Source: Octopus vulgaris
Lineage: Eukaryota
Assembly (NCBI GenBank): GCA_951406725.2
Contig: OX597814.1
Span: 69,564,001 to 69,628,000, forward strand
Reading direction: 5' to 3'
DNA length: 64,000 nt
This document shows positions 5,001 to 43,048 of this stretch, piece after piece. The notes beneath the pieces were generated by a model that made no database searches, was not told where the DNA came from, and was given only the letters and a program-made list of their open reading frames with translations. Position 1 is the stretch's first letter. Each line of letters opens with the position of its first letter. The position numbers and the translations under genes are program-made.

Positions 5001-8000
5001 GCAAGACAAATGTGAAATGTGCTATGTCAGGATAATGCCTTATTATATTTAGTTGCATGTCTCAACTTTCCAAGTTTAAATCTTTCAGCCCTCTGCAATC
5101 AATAAAATAACTACCAGTAAGGATACCAAAATGAACTGAATTTACAAGAATTCTGTCATAGAAAACTTGGACAATGGAAGGAATCAATGCTATTTACTGT
5201 AATATTGGGTCAACCCATAAATAATGTGGGTTTTTTTAATTGAATGAACTAAAAGATGGAGGGGGTCAGGATAAACTACCTACATCAACTTGCTATAAAA
5301 GCTGGTAGTAATTTTACCTTGAACTTATTCTTAGTGCAACTTTTGAAGAGTGCAGTTTGATTTTAACAGTTACTTTTTCAAAGCTATAATGGAAGGGACA
5401 AAGGAGAATATTTGGCATATTTTGCTTTATGACTTCAATAAAGACAACAATGCAACGGAAAGTGCAAGGAATATTAATGCAGTATAGGAGTATCAGACAA
5501 TAAGTGTAAACTAGTGTCAACAGTGGTTCCAGAAATTGCAAGTTGGAAACCACAGCCTAAAAGACAATCCTACAAACCCTAGTGGAACAAAACAGTTGAA
5601 GAATTAGCAGAGAATCTTGGATTTGGTCATTCAACCATTCATCGACACCTGCATGCGATCAGAAAAGTCAGGAAATTGGGCCAATGGTTCCTCACAAACT
5701 TTTCAAGTCTAATTGCATGCAGGGAGTGAATGTGTGATCTTCTTTGCTGTCATGTCTCATGAATGAACCTTTTTTATGAATAGTGACTAGCAACAAGAAA
5801 TGGTTTCTCTATAAAAATGTCAAGCACTGAAGACAGTGGGTAGGGAAAGGAGAAACACTGGCAGCCCAGGCTAAAGAAGATCTTCACCCATGTAAGGTGT
5901 TGTTATCTGTTTCGTGGGATATGAAAGGTTTTTTAGTCCACTTTGAACTTTTAAACCTGCAGCATAAGCCAACGCAAGAAGTAAAATGACCATCTTTGGT
6001 TTCAACACGAGAGGTGTTCTTCCATCAGGATAATGCTCGGTCACATACAGTGAGTATGACGTTCCAAAGGTTGGAGCAGTTTGAATGGGAAATGATGCCC
6101 CACTCACCATATTTGCCAGACATTGCCCCATCTTATTATCATTTATTCCACAATCTTCAAAATCATTTGGGCAGAAAAAACATGTAGATGAGGTCAAAAC
6201 AGTACTGGAGGAGTATTTTTCATCACAGACAAGTGAATTTTGGAAGAGCGGCCTTGCAAGTGTACCAGATAGACTATTACATCATTTAGTTCCAATTTGA
6301 TGTTTTGTACATATTCAAATATTAGAAATAGGAAATTAATATTCAGCAGAATTACTTTTGTCAATGTCATGTAAATGGCACCCATGAAAATGTTGCCAGC
6401 AGGACTGGATTTAAACCATCAGGGGTCCAGAGCACTTCAAGTTTGATGGACCCCTTATACACAAGAATTAAAATCTTTTCCAGTTTCCAGTATGGGTAGG
6501 TGGGGTTACTGCACTTTTGACTTTGAATAAAATATATTTTTTACAAATGTTCACTTCCTTGCCAAAACTATATCAGCTCTCTAAATGTAGTAAAACTTAA
6601 AACATATTCAGAACACTATTTCAGAAAATTATCACTGTTCTCTTTGAGCATATAAGACAAATTTAGGTGGAGCAAAATGTGTAAGACAAGATAAGGTAAA
6701 TCTGCCTCTCCAGTTTTCCAGAATTACATTTGAGAAAAGACTCACACACATAAACATCCATCCTAAGATGTCAGAAAGATCATAAATGCAACAAAAATTT
6801 TAAATATCTTGGTCAAATGAAAGCAGAGCATGGAAAATATAGCATGTTATAAAATTAATGAAACTCAACATAAAATATTCTCTGCTGGAGTAGCTTTCTT
6901 CAATAATATATTTATTATGCACAATGCAGTTAAAGAGAAGTAATTATTAAAATTAGTCATTACTCATTCTACCCCAATTTGACTTTTTGTTTTAAACCTG
7001 ACAATTACATTGGTCAACACAATTTTTCTGCTGGGGCAAGAAACTTTTTTTCTTTGCTAATTTTGGGGTGCTGAATCCAAAAATGACCTCCATTTTCTCC
7101 CATCACATAAGCTGTATAAAACATTTAAAAAAAAAAAAATCACAATTTTTAACTAATAATTTTATTGTGTCCTGATATTTCTAAATACTATTTTTAGTTC
7201 TTCAAGCTATAACAATGCAAATTAGCATCAAAACAAACACTATAAACATTAATATTGTGCAAGGAGAGTATACGCCTGTGGACAAAAGGTACTCAAACCT
7301 CCCTTAAATTTGGGATTCTGATGATATGGCATGCACCGGAGAATCATCATGATGATTGCTACTTTTGTATGGTTAGCTTGGTTGGATTCAACAAGAACAA
7401 AAAGAAAATATCCTACCCCTCCATCCCCTCTGCTATTCAGCCTGTACGACATTCTAAAGATTTTCCAGTTCCAGTTTTCAAGGGATTTGCTGATATTCCT
7501 GTTTCCATTGTAGTCATATGACATGCTCAAGAACCAGAGTACGAGGAGATGACTGAAAGCAATTCTAACCCTAATTTTGATAATGCCAGTCAAGCTGACA
7601 GTGATTTTGACTGTTTCGAATCAGCAAATGAACCAAAACTGTTCTATCAAGATGAACTGAGTAACTTAATTTAAGATCTGAATTTATCAAAAGAGTCAGC
7701 AGAGATGTTAGCATCACACCTTCACGAGAAAAATTTGTTAGCAGTTAAAACAAATGTCACTTTCTACTGCAACTGAGATGCTGAGTTCACCCCATTCTTT
7801 GAACAAAACAATGATCTTGTGTTTTGTAAAGAAATTGAACAATTACTTCTTAGATTGGGCATTGATGAATATGATGCTTGTTCATGGTGGTTATTTATCG
7901 ATAGTTCAAATCGCAGTTTGAAGTGTGTACTTTTATACAACACTAATGTGTATGCTTCTATACTGATTGGACACTCTGCTACATTGAAAGAAAAGTACCA

Positions 8001-22195: not shown

Positions 22196-25100
22196 TGGGA
22201 CGAGGTGGTGAGGCACGACCTTCGAACTTTGGGTCTCACCAAGGAAATGACTGGAGACCGAGACCTGTGGAGGTGTGCTGTGCATGGGAGGACCCGGCAA
22301 GACTGGTGAGAAGTCAAAATCAAACCAAATCAACATCAGTGGAAATTGCAGCTGTGGTTAAGTGAACCATCCGATCGTTTGTCTGTTGCCAGCCTCGCCT
22401 GGCCCCCGTGCCGTTGGCACATAAAAGCACCACCCGCACATGTCCGTTGCCAGCCTCGCCTGGCCCTTGTGATGGTAGCACGTAAAAACACCATCCGTTC
22501 ATGTTCGTTGCCAGCCTCGCCTGGCCCTTGTGATGGTAGCACATAAAAACACCATCCGTTCATGTCCGTTGCCAGCCTCGCCCGGCCCCCGTGCCGTTGG
22601 CACGTAAAACCACCATCCGCTCGTGTCCGTTGCCAGCCTCGCCTGGCCCCCGTGCCATTGGCACGTAAAAGCACCATCCGCTCGTGTCCGTTGCCAGCCT
22701 CGCCTGGCCCCATGCCGGTAGCACGTAAAAGCACCATCTGTTCGTGTCCGTTGCCAGCCTCGCCTGGCCCCCGTGCCGGTGGCACGTAAAAGCACCGTCC
22801 GTTCATGGCCGTTTGCCAGCTCCGTCTGGCACCTGTGCAGGTGGCACGTAAAAAGCACCCACTACACTCACGGAGTGGTTGGCGTTAGGAAGGGCATCCA
22901 GCCGTAGAAACACTGCCAAATCTGACTGGGCCTGATGAAGCCTTCCGGCTTCACAGACCCCAGTTAAACCGTCCAACCCATGCTAGCATGGAAAACGGAC
23001 GCTAAATGATGATGATGATGATATATATATATATATATATATACATACATCATCATCATTCAATGTCCATTGTTCATGCTGGTATGGGTTGGATGGTTTG
23101 ACCAGAGTTGGTAAGCTGAGGAGCTGCATTAGACTCCAGCTGGATGCCTTCCTAACACTAAACACTCCACAGAATGTGCTGGGTGCTCTTATGAGGCACT
23201 GCATGGGTGCTTTTAGATGGCACTGCACAGGAGCTTTTATGTGGCACTGCATGGGTGCTTTTACATCTCACTGTATGGGCATGTTTACATGGCACAACAC
23301 AGGTGCTTTTACATGGTATGGCATAGTTGCTTTTACATAGGGCTGCCACAAATCTTAACACTCCTGCTGCAGAATACGGGTCTTGTTGAGTATGGCCAAG
23401 CACCAGGCATCTCAGTCCTTTGTCATCTCACCCGAAAGGTTCAGTGTCTTCAGTACTCCATCCTATGTCTTCTTGGGTTTCCCACTTCCACATGATTTAT
23501 CCACTTTGAGAGATCAGCACTTCCTTATGGAGCTGTCAGCATCTATCCACATCACATGACCAAGCCAGCGAGTCTTCTCTCTTGCACACAACAACCAATT
23601 CCTCATATGCCTAACTTCTCTCTCAGAACACTAGCACTCTGTCGAATATGTATGTACACTTACATTACACATCCAACAGAGTATACTAGCCTCATTCCTT
23701 TCTAACCTTCACATGTCCTCTGCATTCAGAACGCATGTCTCACTACCATGTAGAATTTCTGTCCATACACATGCCTCATACAATCTTCCTTTCATTTGGG
23801 GAGAAAAAACCTTTCATGGCCAACAGAGTTAATAGCTCTCTGAACTTCCTCCTTCCTATTCTCATTCTAGCTATCACACTCTCCGTGCATCCTCCCCTAC
23901 TACTCATTTGGTCCCCTAGGCAGTAGAAATTATCTACTACCTCTAATGAGCCACCAGGGCATTTGAGAGAATCAATTTCCTGGATACCTAAAGTTTTTAT
24001 GGATCCTGTGCATCTTCCACATATGAAAACTATCTTTTCTGATAACCTTCCTATTAATCCACTGCATCTCTTGTGTGTCCATAGCTTATACTGGGTTCAC
24101 CATACAGAGTTCGTGCCTACACCTTTCCTATAAATTGGGTCCTGTCAGTTTTCTTGTTTACTAGGACCTTAGTCTTTGCTAAGTTAACCTTAAAGACCTT
24201 AGATTCCATGTTTTGCTTTCACACCTTGAATTTCTCATCTAGTTCTGAAATGGAATCCATATAGTAGTTCCCAGGAGCTACAAGTCTTGACTTCCTCTGT
24301 TATGGCCTGGAGGACAATGATGAAAAGGAGGGGACTAAGGACTGAGCCTTGATGAACCCCTACTTGAACACCAAATTCTCTGCTGTACTCATGGTTAACT
24401 CTCACCTTACTAACAGCATCTTTATACCTGGCCTGTGCAACTTTCACCAGCTACTCATCTATCCCTAACCTACTCAAAGCCCATCATATCACACAGTAGA
24501 GCACTCAATCGAAGGTTTTTCCGAGATCAATGAGTGCCAGGTATAATGGCTTATTCTTTTTAAGTACTTCTCTTGCAGTTGTCTGACTATGAAAATAGTG
24601 TCAGTAGTGTTTCTTACCTGGACAAAGCCTAACTGTATTTTGTATAGCCTAATTCTGCTCCTAATTAACTGAGCTATAACTCTCCATAATTTTTATCCCC
24701 TGGTTCAGGAGTTTAATGTCTCTATAATTGCTTCTATCTAATGCATCACTCTTACACTTGTAGCAGCTAACAATTATGCTGCTATGTCAGTCAGTGGGTA
24801 TTACACCTTTCTGAATGATCTGATTAACTATGCTGGTGACCAGCCTGTATCCTACCTTACTGGATATTTTGAGCATCTCAGCAATGATTCCGAATGGACC
24901 AGGGGCTTTCCTGGTTTTCATGTTTTTAATTGCCTTATCTACCATACTGCTGTCCACTAGGATAACCAGTCCCTCTGTTCACATGAGGGAAACTCTCTTT
25001 ATCCCATTCATTCTCTACACTCAGCAGTCTTGCATAATACATTTTCCACATCACTACATGCAAGCATACCTTTATTCACCCACACACACTTCCCTCCTAC

Positions 25101-28100: not shown

Positions 28101-29218
28101 ACCTGCGGAGATAGGCTGTGCTTGAGAAGACACAGCAAGCCAAGTGAGACCATAACCCTGGCCTATGCCAGTGTCACATAACCAGCCCATTTAAGAGTAC
28201 TCTTCAATCATTGGGCAATATACTGTGTTTGAGAAGACCTGTTGAGTCAAGAGAAATCATTGTTGTGGCCGGTGCCAGTACCACCTGACTGGCACCTGTG
28301 CTGGTGGCACATATAAAGCACCAAACGAATGTGGTTGATGCATTGCTGTCTGACCAGTCCCGTGCTGGTGTCATGTAAAAAGCACCATTTGAGTGTGTTT
28401 GTTACCAGTACTGCCTGACTGGCCCCTGTGCCGGTGGCATGTAAAAAGCACCCACTACACTCTCAGAGTGGTTGGCGTTAGGAAGGGCACCCTGTAGAAA
28501 CCTTGCCAGATCAGATTGGAGACTGGTGCAGCCTCCTGTCTTGTCAGTCCTTAGTCAAACCATCCAACCCATGCCAGCATGGAAAGCAGATGTTAAATGA
28601 TGATGATGATGATGATAACTATGGTGACTGGTACATCCTCAAAATTTATTTCCATTTATTTTACAGTATGTCATACAGCATATTTATGATGACCTAACTG
28701 TATAGGTTATTATAGCCATAACAATATGCTGTATGACATACTGTAAAATAAAAGGAAAAAAATTTTGAGGATGTACTTGTCTCCACATACTCACTATCAG
28801 TATAATTATTGTAAATCTACACTCCATATAATATTATAATCTAGTGAAGCAAACATAGAATTACCCATTGGAGGAATTTACTGTGTGAGTGACAATACCT
28901 AGTAGTCATAGACATTAAATACTAATCAATGAGGTTAGCCACAACCTGGAATATAACTGAGAGCTACCACAGTATCTACCTGGATAGTATATCCCTCTAA
29001 ACTTACATTAATATATATATATTTTAATACTAGCACATCTGTTGAAAGTTTTATTAATGATAGAAAATGGTGCACTAAAACAAGACAAACCATTGATAGA
29101 TGTCAGTAATTGAGTAAGTATATGTATAAACACAGAATTGAAGCATATGAGTAATTAGATATAGTTGTAATGACTTGGTTGAAAATATTATTGTCCATGT
29201 AATATATATGTATATATA

Positions 29219-34856: not shown

Positions 34857-37800
34857 ATAAATCAATAAATAATGTAGATTTTTCAGTTGCATGAACTAAA
34901 AGTCGGAGGGGAATGGGATAAACAGCCTGCACTAACTTGCTATAAGAGAAGGTAGTGATTTTACCTTGACCTTATTCTTAGTGCAACTTTTGAAGAATGC
35001 AGTTCGATTTTAACAGTTACATGTTTCAAAGCTATAATGGAAGTGACAAAGGAGAATATTTGGCATATTTTGCTTTATGAATTCAATAAAGGCAACAACA
35101 CAACGGAAAGTGCGAGAAATATTAATGCAGTATATAGGGATCAAACAATAAGTAGTGTAAGCTAGTGTCACTGGTGGTTCCAGAAATTCTGAGCTGGAAA
35201 CTACAGCCTAGAAACATCATCCTAAGATCTGAAGACAGCTCGACCATCATCCTAAAGCTTGGTGGAAGAAAAATCTGGAAAGCAGAGAAGCTTATCAAAC
35301 CATTCATCACACTCAGAGACATGCTTTCAGAAAGTGAACCAACACCTCCTTAGACATACATAAAAATTGTCACATATCCTACGCAGAGAATTAACTCTTG
35401 GTGTCATGTTCTCATAATGCCTCTTTCACTGCACTAACAGATACTATTGAGAAATTTCTCTATTAATATGTCAACAGAAGACAAAGAGTGGGTCATAAAA
35501 AAAACATTTTGTGTGACAATAAAGTGGCAATGAAACAAGTATAGGATATGAAAGGTGTGAGTGAACAAACCAAATGATAACAAAGGATCTACTGTGAGCA
35601 GCTTCACTAGGCTTAAGTCAGTGCTAGAAGAAAAACTACTGTATCTAGTTTCAACACAAAAGGTGTTCTTCCATCAGAATAATGCTTGGCTACATGACAT
35701 TCCAAAGGCTGGAGCAGTTTCAATGGGAGAAGATGCCCCATCCACCATATTGAATGGACATTTCCCCATCTGATTATCATTTATTCTGCAGTCTTCAAAA
35801 TCATTTGGACAGGAAAAATATGAATTCTGTAGACGAGATCAGAACAATACTGGAGGAGTATTTTTCATCACAGACAAGTGAAATTTGGAAGAGGGGCATT
35901 ATACGCTAGAAGAAGCAGTCAAAACGACCAAAACCACATTTAATAGCAATTTTCAAAGGGAATGAAAAATAAAAACTTTTACCTTGTTATTTTTTGCGGT
36001 TATACCTAGGTTTCAAATTTCTTTAGCAAATAAAATAATCTACAAGGCGAATTCTCATCAGTAACCGGCCTTAACAACTAACTTATAATTCAGAGACAAG
36101 TAACACGTGTCTCATCTTTATATGTTATAATTTTTCAAAATTCAGCATGCAAGTGCAGTTTCAGTCGGCAGTAGATGGATAATGCCGAGCTGATTCTTTG
36201 AAAACGCTAAAATCATATCCGTAAGCATTTTAGAAGAATCAGCTCAGCATTATCCATCTACTGCCAAATGAAACTGCACTTGCATGCTGAATTTTGAAAA
36301 ATTATAACATATAAAGATGAGACACATGTTATTTGTCTCTGAATTATAAGTTAGTTGTTAAGGCATGGTTACTGATGAGAATTCGCCTTGCAGATTATTT
36401 TATTTGCTAAAGAAACTTCTATCTAATTATACATATTCTCCTTGAGCATAAATCAGAGCCATACATCAAATTGAAGACTACATTTGTCTCCTATTACAAA
36501 TTTGGCTTCAAAGACAACAGAAAAATACTTATACATACAATCATTTTTCTAGTCATCAATATACCAAAACGACCAACATATTAATAGCAATTTTCAAATT
36601 AAAATTTTAACTAACATATCTTTGCAAGAAAAGATCCCCATTAACAATAAAGATATAACAAAGAAAATACACATATAAATTAAATCATTGCTTTATATAA
36701 TAGAAAGAAAATGTAGTGCAAAACACACAAGATCACATAGATAAAATATGAATCCCTATGCCATAAAACAAAAGTCTTTTGACTGCAAAGCACACATCTA
36801 TTTGTATTGAATTATAACATTAAAGTTATCACAGCTATATATTTATTGACACTTACAGACATACAAAAAATTACACATCCTATCCTTTTAGACACTGCAA
36901 ACTAATCATCTACAAATTGAAAAAAACAGACTCACAAATAATATAGGCACTAAACAGAGACCAAAACACGTATAAAACAAGAAGACAAAGTGATAATCAT
37001 TTCACCTCCTACATTCATGCACTAGGAAAACAACCAGTAAGTATACAGAGAACAACCACAAGACCATATAGGCTAACACTGAGGTACAGTCTAGATTGCT
37101 TCATTGTACTAAAATCTAATAAAAATAGTATTTTAATATAACTGGAAAAATACCTTTTGTTTTGTTAAGTCATTAAAATTATATAACTAGAATTAAAATT
37201 TTTGTTCCCAATATGTAGAGCTGCAATAATGTTATATTGTAGCAGGAAATTGAGCTGAATATCAAAAGCATCACAGCTTATTTCAGAAAGAAGCTTAATA
37301 AAATAGCTGCAAAATAGCTTCTAAAATTCTAGGTGAATTTGAAGTACAGAGACAACTCCATTCTCATTTCCATTCTCCAGCCAAATAGACAAATTGCTAT
37401 CATGAATTTAGTACAATACTTCTCCAGTTGTGACAGCATAGTCATAGAGCCATACATACCAGCTGTTCTGTCATAGACTACAGAGTTTGTCTCTCCCAGG
37501 GTGTATAAACTGTTGTTTGTATTTTTCATTCAAAGACCAACATAGAAAATACTATGTGCAGTAAATAAAGTTGCTGTTAACTGTTGTTCATGAGTGTTGT
37601 TCATCATTTATATGCAGCCAACAAGCCAACAATATTAACTTGCAATTTTCCAAATTCAAAATTATTCACACTAATCTTTTTTCATATTTTTCCTCTCTGC
37701 CAAGAAAAGATCCCCATTAACAATAATTAGATATAACAAAGAAAATACACATATAAATTAATAGTTGTTCAGATTGCTTTATAGGTAGATAGAAAGAAAA

Positions 37801-38967
37801 TTGTGGAGTGTCCAAGTAACACTTACTGCGAGTGGGTCATTTCCAGTAGATAAAATATCAAGAAGGTCACTGGATGAGACAAAATAAAATCGAGGGAAAG
37901 CTAAGCGTTTTGTCTCCAAATATTCTGCTAAAGCTTTTTCGCACTTCACCAGTTCTTTCTGTATTGATTCTAAGCGTTGATATAAATTTGGCTGATCTAT
38001 TGCTTGGATTACATTTTTGGTAACCTCAACTTCAGAAACCATTTGCTATAAAGATTCAGACAGAAATGAACAAAAAATAGTTAATTATGTATCTCTCTAT
38101 ATATAAATGCAGAAACTCTAAGACAAACACTGAAAAAAACATGTATATTGCATAATATTTATTTTGTGAAATAAACAGCCAGATTTCCACCAAACCACAC
38201 CCTGTCATTAAAAGAAGAAAGTGAACAAAGTGAAAATGGTAATCTTTCTCTCATCTCTCTTTCTCTCACCGAGTTTCTATCTTGAATAGTGGAAAAGAGG
38301 GGAATAGATAGTGAGAGACACAGAAGACACACAGACAGACATAGCTAGCTAGCTATCTGGTCATCCCATAAGCTCTGCTTGATTTTACCTTTTTTAAAAT
38401 TGAATGAAATTTAATAGTATTTTAGAATGTCTAATGGAATTAAAAATTATTTTTATGCATTTGTGTACATTTAATGTAATTAAATATTATTTTACAGAAT
38501 AATAGAATTAAAATTTCCTTGATTAAAACCCTTTCTAATATGGAAGTATCCAAAGAGCATTTAAGGCACATAATGCTTTATGAGTACAAAAAAGGAAACT
38601 CTGCAGCCGAAGTGACTCAAAACATACACTCTGTTTATGGGAAAGAATGCTTGAATGAAAGAACTTGCAGAAGATACTTTGCAAAATTCAGAAGTGGAGA
38701 TTTCAGCCTTGAAGATGAAGAGTGAACAGGACGTCAAGTTGAGTTTGATGATAAGCTCCTTGAGGCATTACTTGAAGAAAATCCTGCATTATCAGTTGAA
38801 AAATTGGCAATAAAGCTTAGTTCAAACCATACAACTGTTCATCGTCATTTTCAACAATTTGGAAAGGTTCCTAAACTTGGAAAATGGGTGTCTCATGAAT
38901 TGTCCGAAAGCAACAAACCACAACATCTCTCTCTCTCCAAAAACACACCACCCACAAAAAAAAAATC

Positions 38968-40241: not shown

Positions 40242-43048
40242 CCTCCGATGGATGTGTAATGTCAGTACTCATACTCGGCAGAGTGTAAGTACCTTGAGAG
40301 AAAAGCTGGACCTAAGAAGCATCAGTTGTGGTGTGCAAGAGGGACGTTTGCGCTGGTATGGTCATGTGGCGAGAATGGATGAAGATAGTTGTGTGAAAAA
40401 GTGCCACACCCTAGCGGTTGAGGGAACCTGCGGAAGAGGCAGACCCAGGAAAACCTGGGACGAGGTGGTGAAGCACGACCTTCGAACTTTAGGTCTCACT
40501 GAGGAAATGACTAGAGACCGAGACCTCTGGAAGTGTGCTGTGCGCGAGAAGACCTGGCAGGACAAGTGAGTCCATAACCCGTGGCCTTCTACATGGGATG
40601 GAGCCAGCCTACGTATGCATACCTTCCCTTCTTGGGACACAAAACTCTACTTGTGAAGACCTGTTGAGGCAAGTGAGGATCAGAATCGAAATCGATCAAT
40701 GGAAATTGCAGATGTGTTACCAGTGCCAGTGGCATGTCGAAACTCTACTTGTGAAGACCTGTTGAGGCAAGTGAGGATCAGAATCGAAATCGATCAATGG
40801 AAATTGCAGATGTGTTACCAGTGCCGGTGGCATGTAAGAGAACCTTCTGTTTCACGACCGTTGCCAGCGCCGCCCCGACTGGCCTCGTGCCGGTGGCATG
40901 TAAAAAGCACCATCCATTCGTGTCCGTTGCCAGCCTCGCCTGGCCCTCGTGCCGGTGGCACATAAAAAGCACCATCCGTTCGTGACGTTTGCCAGCTCTG
41001 TCTGGCACCTGTGCAGGTGGTACATAAAAAGCACCCACTACACTCACGGAGTGGTTGGCGTTAGGAAGGGCATCCAGCCGTAGAAACACTGCCAGATTTC
41101 ACTGGGCCTGATGAAGCCTTCTGGCTTCACAGACCCCAGTAGAACCGTCCAACCCATGCTAGCATGGAAAACGGACGCTAAACGATGATGATGATGATGA
41201 TGATGATATATCTTTATATATATAAAACTGAGAATGTGTGTCTGTCTGTCTGTCTATCTGTCTGTGTGTTTCCCTAAAACTTGAGAACTACACAACCAAT
41301 TTCATTCAAACTTTACAAATGCCTTACTTAGGGTCCATGTAGTTTCATGGGCAAAAAAAATGTTCAACTTCTTGCCTAGAGCGAGCCCATAGCAATATCA
41401 TATCTTCTCCACTATTTCATTATTACATGTTAAAAGTGAAACAAAAACATTTCTCTATTTTATGTCAGATACTTTCACTTTAACAATAAAAATAATAATA
41501 ACAATTGAATTATATGTAGTAAGTAATAATTAAAATCAAACTAAAGTATAATATAATCGTAACATAACAAAAGTAAAAATAGCAATTGGTATAAAATTGC
41601 ATCAATGATTTGAACTTGAATAAGTGGTTTCACATGAATGGGAATAAATTAAAATTAAAATTAGCGTGCAGAAATGGAATAGTCCAGATGGATAATAAAA
41701 AATTAAATTAAAGAAAAGACTATTGTCTATAAAGTATACAATGTAGAGAAAAAAGAAGATTTGAACACACGGAGAAAAGCACCTTTGAAAAGTGTCTTGG
41801 TGGGACTATGAAAGATATCTAATCAGAGGCAGTAAATTCGCCACAATAGAAGCAAGGTTCAAGTCAACGGAGCGTGCAAGGGAGTACTCAACTCGAACTT
41901 GCAAAGTGGAAATATTTTATTCTTACCTTTATATCTGGGACGTAGGACGTCCCGGAAAAAAATTGAAAATGCACCCCTCCCCACCAGAAGTAAAAGTAGG
42001 CTGGATTGTAGCCACACTTCTATACAAGAGGGAGGACAAGATACAATTGATCGAAATTACAAGAGACGGGCTAACAATTCCAGTCTGTTATATATATACT
42101 AGCGATATCAAGATATAACTTTGTATTTTGTATTTTATGTGTAGATGTATATATATATGTAAAGTATACTAGCCATCTCAATATGGCTAACCACTAGGGG
42201 TGGGTGTTACTGTAGCTTTTTAGCCCCAGGAGATCATCGTCTCCAGCTGGCTGTAGACACAATTTCTGTGCCCTTATGATATTTGCAAAGGGAGGTCATC
42301 CCCTCTCGTAAACCTAAGTGATATGCATGGACTGCAGTTTCGAGATTATTGCCTCTTGTCAACACACGGTAATCATGGGTTTTCGATGAGAAGAGACCTG
42401 TTTGCGAATATCTATTTATTGTTTTTCCCAGTAACCACTGTCACTGATTTCGAAAAACGGTCTAAAGCCAGCTGGAGACGATGATCTCCTGAGGCTAAAA
42501 AGCTACAGTAACACCCACCCCTAGTGGTTAGCCATATTGAGATGGCTAGTATACTTTACATTGTCAAGCGCTTACTGTTTACATCTCATTCAGAGATTTA
42601 TTATTGCTTTCAGACCGTTTTTCGAAATCAGTGACAGTGGTTACTGGGAAAAACAATAAATAGATATTCGCAAACAGGTCTCTCCTCATTGAAAACCCGT
42701 GATTACCGTGTGTTGACAAGAAACAATAATCTCGAAACTGCAGTCTATGCGTATCACTTAGGTTTACGAGAGGGGATGACCTCCCTTTGCAAATATCATA
42801 AGGGCACAGAAATTGTGTTTAAAGCCAGCTGGAGACGATGATCTCCTGGGGCTAAAAAGCTACAGTAACACCCACCCCTAGTGGTTAGCCATATTGAGAT
42901 GGCTAGTATACTTTACGTTGTCGAGCGCTTACTGTTTACATCACGTTCAGAGATTTATTATTGTATATATATAGATGTACATGTAATATATACACATATA
43001 TACATGCACTAGCACTATGACCCGGCAACGACAGGTCTTTAATGCTAG

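Follow-up and report, generated by a model that had tools for sequence, protein, structure and literature searches.

A type I hammerhead motif in a fold-back repeat of an Octopus vulgaris dynein intron: a probable truncated Penelope-like insertion

Hammerhead ribozymes are described near the 3' ends of Penelope-like elements (PLEs), and Craig et al. 2021 (PMC8557442) give as typical of PLEs an inverted, 5'-truncated copy beside the pLTR together with a one-sided tail of 30-40 bp. According to Arkhipova et al. 2013 (PMC3846280), the commonest form is a head-to-head inverted repeat whose junction is palindromic, which they attribute to self-priming; the inverted pLTR is shorter than the direct one, and target-site duplications (TSDs) measure 8-10 bp. 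PLE hammerheads were described by Cervera and De la Pena 2014 (PMC4209133) as pairs on opposite strands, separated by 100-700 bp, and as solo motifs derived from truncated PLEs, with a palindromic helix III and a highly conserved G10.1-C11.1 pair. For the anole PLE, reverse transcription was reported to start 111-118 nt into the ORF and the ribozyme to cut at +26 (Frangieh et al., PMC11167929). Inverted-repeat copies of Penelope in Drosophila yield dsRNA and siRNAs, according to a review (PMC3681739).

The stretch of Octopus vulgaris DNA analysed here (64 kb, the window) contains a motif with the parts of such a hammerhead (Table 1). The original prediction of a complete type I hammerhead on the minus strand, with all core nucleotides, was confirmed by a strict descriptor and a constrained fold: C3 U4 G5 A6 N7 G8 A9, G12 A13 A14, A15.1-U16.1 and H17 are all present. 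Stem I is formed by 36067-36062 with 36002-35997 (6/6 Watson-Crick pairs), and loop 1 is closed in the constrained fold by a further, distal helix of 6 bp (36077-36072 with 35984-35989). The motif has three helices: the open-ended helix I with these two segments, a stem II of 5-6 bp plus an upper helix, and a stem III of 2 bp. Position 11.1 is U, which gives G10.1-U11.1 in place of the conserved G10.1-C11.1 pair, and nucleotide 9 is directly followed by 10.1. The descriptor gave a single match on both strands of the window, namely this motif; 200 order-2 Markov shuffles also gave one match, and a palindrome of at least 6 combined with a stem I of at least 6 occurred in none of them. The search with Rfam models that had been proposed as a check was run, and no hammerhead model matched the motif in any of the three scans, possibly owing to the 40-nt stem II. 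An Rfam match to MIR399, below its cut-off, reflects only the hairpin.

Table 1 Features of the hammerhead locus (positions within the window)
Feature	Position	Strand	Remarks
Mariner transposase remnant	35611..35897	plus	adjoins the insertion
Candidate target-site duplication, left copy	35898..35904	plus	7 bp; doubles as microhomology
One-sided 3' extension beyond the ribozyme	35905..35996	minus	very high copy
Type I hammerhead, distal stem I helix included	36077-35984	minus	descriptor and constrained fold
Hammerhead minimal motif	36067-35997	minus	
Catalytic core CUGAUGA	36061-36055	minus	within the fold-back duplex
Stem II, long, AU-rich, with internal loop	36015..36054	minus	40 nt
GAAA (36014-36011), stem III and UA	36003..36014	minus	outside the fold-back duplex
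Palindromic stem III	36010-36005	minus	monomer: 2 bp + tetraloop; dimer: 8 bp
UA	36004-36003	minus	predicted cut 36003/36002 (GUA)
Direct (ribozyme-bearing) arm of the inverted repeat	36015..36208	minus	
Loop at the inverted junction	36209..36223		15 nt
Inverted 5'-truncated copy, head to head	36224..36418	plus	first transcribed in the dynein direction
Candidate target-site duplication, right copy	36426..36432	plus	7 nt outside the inverted arm
Upstream exon, axonemal dynein heavy chain	37827..38045	minus	73 codons, DHC_N2

The host gene resembles an axonemal outer-arm dynein heavy chain; DNAH17, 9, 11 and the ciliary beta chain are among the names of the matches, and the best protein matches are gastropod (73-77%). 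Using 10 of the 120 listed homologues as queries, we mapped six exons on the minus strand (60101-59889, 48730-48503, 38045-37827, ~14154-13978, 12398-12117 and 2074-1766). Dynein exons on this strand flank the motif on both sides, which places the hammerhead in sense within an intron. The next exon found after 38045-37827 is that at ~14154, giving an intron of 23.7 kb, and the hammerhead lies 1.76 kb into it, in agreement with the predicted sense orientation about 1.8 kb downstream of the exon.

The ribozyme is embedded in a fold-back whose anatomy can be read directly. An inverted repeat of about 190 bp with the 5' strand, core and stem II of the ribozyme in its left arm had been proposed, and such a repeat is present over 195 alignment columns (404 bp in total); its plus-strand mirror copy ends, as had also been stated, before the core GAAA and stem III. 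The arms differ at 12 columns (11 substitutions and one gap), and the computed fold of the repeat has an energy of -310 kcal/mol (z -47). Eight of the 11 substitutions are transitions. The left arm has 12 CpG bases, and five of the 11 substitutions are at these positions (Fisher p 1e-4; when the site next to the gap is omitted, p 2e-3). The 36224..36418 arm lacks five of the six CpGs that the 36015..36208 arm retains; visible CpG losses are thus five in the masking arm and none in the other (5 to 1 if 11.1 was C).

These differences bear on the concern that the palindrome might be an assembly artefact made from a chimeric fold-back read. None of the listed contigs of the four sequencing runs used spans the palindrome, and 36438-36601 has no contig cover in 4/4 runs, as would fit an artefact; 36766-36900 is likewise uncovered in all four, and such holes prove nothing. 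However, arms that differ by CpG-enriched transitions argue against a chimeric read, and the CpG-type differences probably reflect methyl-CpG decay over time. Moreover, two of the four runs, X2 and X3, which belong to separate studies, each have a single-copy-depth contig (58.6 and 53.4) that links 36415, at the outer end of the mirror arm, to 37701-type sequence, which adjoins the exon, the letters in between being not known; this joint was not found in runs X5 and X11. Independent confirmation of the palindrome is partial, and we regard an artefact as highly improbable.

The repeat nature of the unit was assessed with contigs from four of 24 sequencing runs, placed at 80% likeness. Depth is given as summed contig depth relative to one single-copy contig per run, a rough proxy that does not give copy number. 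On this scale, the ribozyme bin 36028-36068 reached 48-232x in 4/4 runs (four studies) and the 3' extension bin 35905-35945 reached 979-2320x in 4/4 runs. The palindrome-centre bin 36192-36232 reached 0.6-8.6x in 4/4 runs, which is 1.6-6.9% of the adjacent arm bin. The deep ribozyme and extension bins against the shallow centre show that the hammerhead unit is one copy of a dispersed multi-copy family, while the centre of the palindrome is nearly locus-specific and not common to the family. The original suggestion of a non-autonomous retrozyme-like family therefore holds as regards a multi-copy family and fails at this locus as regards a strict retrozyme, which has two or more tandem units, each with a complete hammerhead: the 64 kb contain one complete motif and no tandem copy.

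On its 3' side the unit runs for some 90 nt beyond the ribozyme and reaches ~35905. Family contigs align from 35899, and 67 contigs in X3 and 40 in X5 have loose ends at ~35899; the left copy of the candidate TSD is therefore also counted as microhomology in Table 1. Depth rises about tenfold at 35985-35990, just 3' of the distal helix of the ribozyme, which indicates that the 3' extension is common to a far larger set of copies in which the ribozyme region is diverged or missing; several contig joints bypass the ribozyme or switch to the inverse orientation at stem I. A 34-bp piece at 36565-36598, outside the candidate TSD, is 87% like the 3' extension (35920-35957) in the same orientation. 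The mariner remnant that adjoins the insertion is 79% identical to 5962-6255, itself beside a Transposase_1 match, and it does not continue across the other side of the insertion.

The insert contains no ORF in six frames, hence neither reverse transcriptase nor GIY-YIG, as a truncated end would be expected to look, and in line with the earlier statement that the arms hold no coding remnant. The core includes an ATG, from which an ORF might start in the manner seen near the anole ribozyme; this frame meets a stop after 11 codons in either arm. Pattern scans of sequence collections yielded no relative: of two scans of viral contigs one gave three loci and the other none, a metagenome scan gave one locus, and two scans of prokaryote genomes gave none. 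By blastn, the four loci show no similarity to the window. One hammerhead-like motif, compact and with an identical palindromic stem III, lies at L001:3001-3037 (minus) of a 99-kb viral contig; it looks unrelated and has no further similarity to the window.

The fold-back could also have arisen independently of retrotransposition, either as a MITE-like palindrome that carries a hammerhead or by a later template-switch inverted duplication in a solo copy. The long terminal inverted arms, the lack of an ORF and the presence of other palindromes in the window are compatible with this. A MITE unit is nevertheless excluded: copies sharing both terminal arms and the interior were not found, given the low relative depth of the centre, and the family extends 110 nt beyond one arm. 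Against a template switch speaks the 7-bp direct repeat located outside both arms, which suggests that the mirror arm came with the insertion. A repeat of this kind was likewise found in 46 of 23,020 null windows of the intron, the window for the candidate TSD having been picked post hoc, and no empty site was seen. We consider an origin unrelated to retrotransposition quite improbable.

Contigs of the family also provided information on the state of the window copy. The letter common in the family at 35996 (47-71% of depth) restores a seventh stem I pair that is missing in the window, that at 36044 (60-83% of depth) restores a missing stem II pair, and the variant at 36042 (23-67%) strengthens the upper part of stem II. 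Other variants, at 36021 (22-66%) and 36075 (0-89%), would disrupt predicted pairs if their partners stay the same. Among the 40 variant rows listed, of 114, none falls within the core. In run X3, one contig fragment of another copy has C before GAAA, at the place of U11.1 in the window. Judged by its letters, the window copy seems decayed, with G10.1-U11.1, without the seventh stem I pair and with a weaker upper stem II.

Whether this copy can cut was judged from folding energies. In a monomer that lacks the upstream arm, another fold has the lowest energy; the active one lies 7.9 kcal/mol above the ensemble, which corresponds to a probability of about 3e-6 from secondary-structure energies alone, tertiary contacts being ignored. 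With two copies, the minimum-energy fold is a double hammerhead with an 8-bp stem III (-30.4 vs 2 x -9.2 kcal/mol). A partner for such a dimer was not found: no other complete hammerhead lies on the sense strand of the intron, and the 64-kb window has no tandem copy of the unit. A helix III of 2 bp plus tetraloop is reported to be monomer-competent in invertebrate retrozymes; a coral hammerhead monomer cleaved at ~0.8 per minute and an axolotl motif with this helix was cleaved to 22% in an hour (PMC7229834, PMC7761336). By analogy with these retrozymes, whose helix III geometry it shares, the unmasked RNA might be cleaved as a monomer, in which case masking could have an effect.

The upstream arm changes this balance strongly. 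With it, the active fold is computed to lie 69 kcal/mol above the ensemble, compared with the +7.9 kcal/mol obtained without it, and the predicted sequestering of the ribozyme in dsRNA is thereby supported thermodynamically, at the level of a folding model. Because the units stand head to head, the antisense arm would be transcribed before the ribozyme on either strand, and masking needs no design, as it would follow from the geometry of any such insertion.

Release of the masked ribozyme by ADAR editing or unwinding, with conditional cutting of the pre-mRNA, had been proposed as well. A near-perfect intronic duplex of 195 bp is a typical ADAR substrate, and the cut site and the 3' strand of stem I lie outside it. 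Yet when editing was simulated with the needed adenosines spared, the active fold at 50% (8 draws each) was disfavoured by 49 kcal/mol where A was read as G and by 40 kcal/mol where A was unpairable; full editing narrowed these gaps to 35 and 13 kcal/mol. Seven adenosines of the core and stems are within the duplex, and the probability that all of them escape at 50% editing is 0.008. The sense strand of the intron moreover offers no second complete hammerhead. With a gap of at least 13 kcal/mol in every case, and with adenosines of the core themselves within the duplex, the proposed release was not borne out; we give an editing-triggered switch next to no credence.

The idea that the fold-back is an evolved, built-in safety catch is likewise not supported, because head-to-head inverted copies are the commonest PLE arrangement and the palindrome centre is not family-wide; ordinary PLE insertion geometry would account for it. 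A weaker form would be a passive, selective filter, in which a ribozyme that was monomer-active when it inserted, and would otherwise have harmed the dynein pre-mRNA, is tolerated since the mirror arm covers its core. The strong masking agrees with this, as do the helix III geometry compatible with monomer cleavage (PMC7229834) and the relative depletion of retrozymes in Xenopus introns reported by Li et al. (bioRxiv 10.64898/2026.07.22.740005). Two skews point in the same direction, with six of eight transitions giving G-U in the sense duplex (p 0.14) and the CpG losses on the masking arm; they are weak and not significant. On the other hand, the same geometry arises anyway in PLE insertion, and the active fold remains disfavoured without the arm. 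According to PMC4209133, a single minimal PLE hammerhead motif showed no cleavage, and Frangieh et al. (PMC11167929) describe the anole ribozyme as protein-dependent and saw no RNA-seq reads that end at its cut site. In work summarised in PMC2995048, introns were still spliced after hammerhead cleavage, and 42-44% of the Xenopus retrozyme copies are intronic despite their depletion (Li et al., bioRxiv 10.64898/2026.07.22.740005). A selective filter at this locus is therefore unlikely.

Taken together, the locus is probably an insertion, now dead and with much of its 5' part missing, that derives from the hammerhead-bearing end (pLTR) of a PLE or of a non-autonomous derivative, silent in the dynein pre-mRNA, with limits at about 35905-36425. 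We infer the PLE origin from the anatomy. The hammerhead is near the 3' end of the insertion, with the cut site ~100 nt from the 3' boundary. The anole reverse transcription start, as computed from PMC11167929, lies 85-92 nt past the ribozyme cut, compared with the ~100 nt of the window element. The adjacent inverted copy is 5'-truncated and head to head, and its 3' end is shorter than that of the direct copy; the extension, present on one side only, passes the mirror arm's end by ~110 nt, and family contigs run past 35899. The PLE or retrozyme background given in the original prediction thus stands as regards a PLE-type hammerhead and an inverted end, and not as regards a built-in function of the fold-back.

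On this reading, an element-encoded nuclease would have nicked an AT-rich site, and reverse transcription would have begun ~100 nt downstream of the ribozyme and copied ~300 nt. The head-to-head mirror copy would have been built by self-priming or strand switching and have halted short of the 3' end, and repair would have left the 7-bp duplication. Both arms would since have decayed neutrally. In the dynein pre-mRNA, the 195-bp hairpin would keep the ribozyme unfolded and the intron uncut; the hairpin may be an incidental substrate for editing or siRNA production.

Other repeats were noted in the window. A second compound repeat with PLE-like geometry is present at 42157-42963, with inverted arms of 311 bp (42159-42468 / 42606-42916, 97%) and a 147-bp direct repeat (42460-42606 / 42817-42963, 96%); it includes a hammerhead-like string with a palindromic hexamer and TA, in which the first box is one base longer, TAAA replaces GAAA and stem I is missing. 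Older imperfect palindromes are at 28579-28827 and 22963-23102 (75% and 83%). Runs X2 and X3 may lack the stretch 36416-37700 or differ from the window there, their contig linking 36415 with the 37701-type member of a 90-bp duplication (36625-36712 / 37701-37801, 86%); the best-matching runs share only 0.40-0.44 of the words of 35300-38300. Mariner transposase remnants with HTH_48 and Transposase_1 matches are located at 38480-38917, 5831-6255 and 35611-35897, and the introns elsewhere contain many fragments of LINEs with reverse transcriptase that end in short tandem repeats.

The window element is, in the preferred reading, one more truncated PLE-type insertion and a clean example of the PLE footprint, with its inverted copy, extension and candidate TSD. 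It also exemplifies a large hammerhead-bearing repeat family in Octopus vulgaris. A more general proposal would be that head-to-head PLE insertions are self-masking and that, if the ribozyme is monomer-active, genomes preferentially retain those intronic copies whose mirror arm covers the core. We hold this to be a long shot; if true, the inverted PLE end, so far seen as a by-product and a source of siRNAs, would be a selective filter that hides active ribozymes in genes. A full-text literature search, at the level of listings, found no paper that states core-covering mirror arms as such a filter. Masked copies favoured in sense introns would give the inverted end a selective role, and an excess of them would bear on the question of what PLE hammerheads do in cells.

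Amniote intronic hammerheads and the CPEB3 ribozyme are single-copy and conserved. The window element resembles these domesticated ribozymes in its sense orientation in a long intron and differs from them in being a masked, apparently decaying copy of a large repeat family. Like the inverted Penelope copies of Drosophila (PMC3681739), it is an inverted repeat which, when transcribed, would give a long hairpin, whereas its transcription would be host read-through. With the non-LTR retrozymes (PMC7229834; bioRxiv 10.64898/2026.07.22.740005) it shares the non-coding nature, the type I hammerhead, a helix III of 2 bp plus tetraloop, a unit of a few hundred bases and a GC content below 50%; unlike them, it is a single unit with an inverted partner in place of a tandem array. 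The PLE type I hammerheads (PMC4209133) are similar in topology, in the long helix II and small palindromic helix III and in the occurrence of dispersed solo copies and of opposite-strand pairs 100-700 bp apart; the window motif differs by its G10.1-U11.1 in place of G-C, by the missing extra nucleotide 9/10.1 and by its incomplete second motif. Compared with the insertion unit of EN+ PLEs, it lacks an ORF and a tandem second pLTR, and its extension is ~110 nt instead of 30-40. It agrees with this unit in the shorter head-to-head inverted copy, the palindromic junction, the one-sided 3' extension, the hammerhead near the 3' end, the short candidate TSD and the scale of ~200-300 bp.
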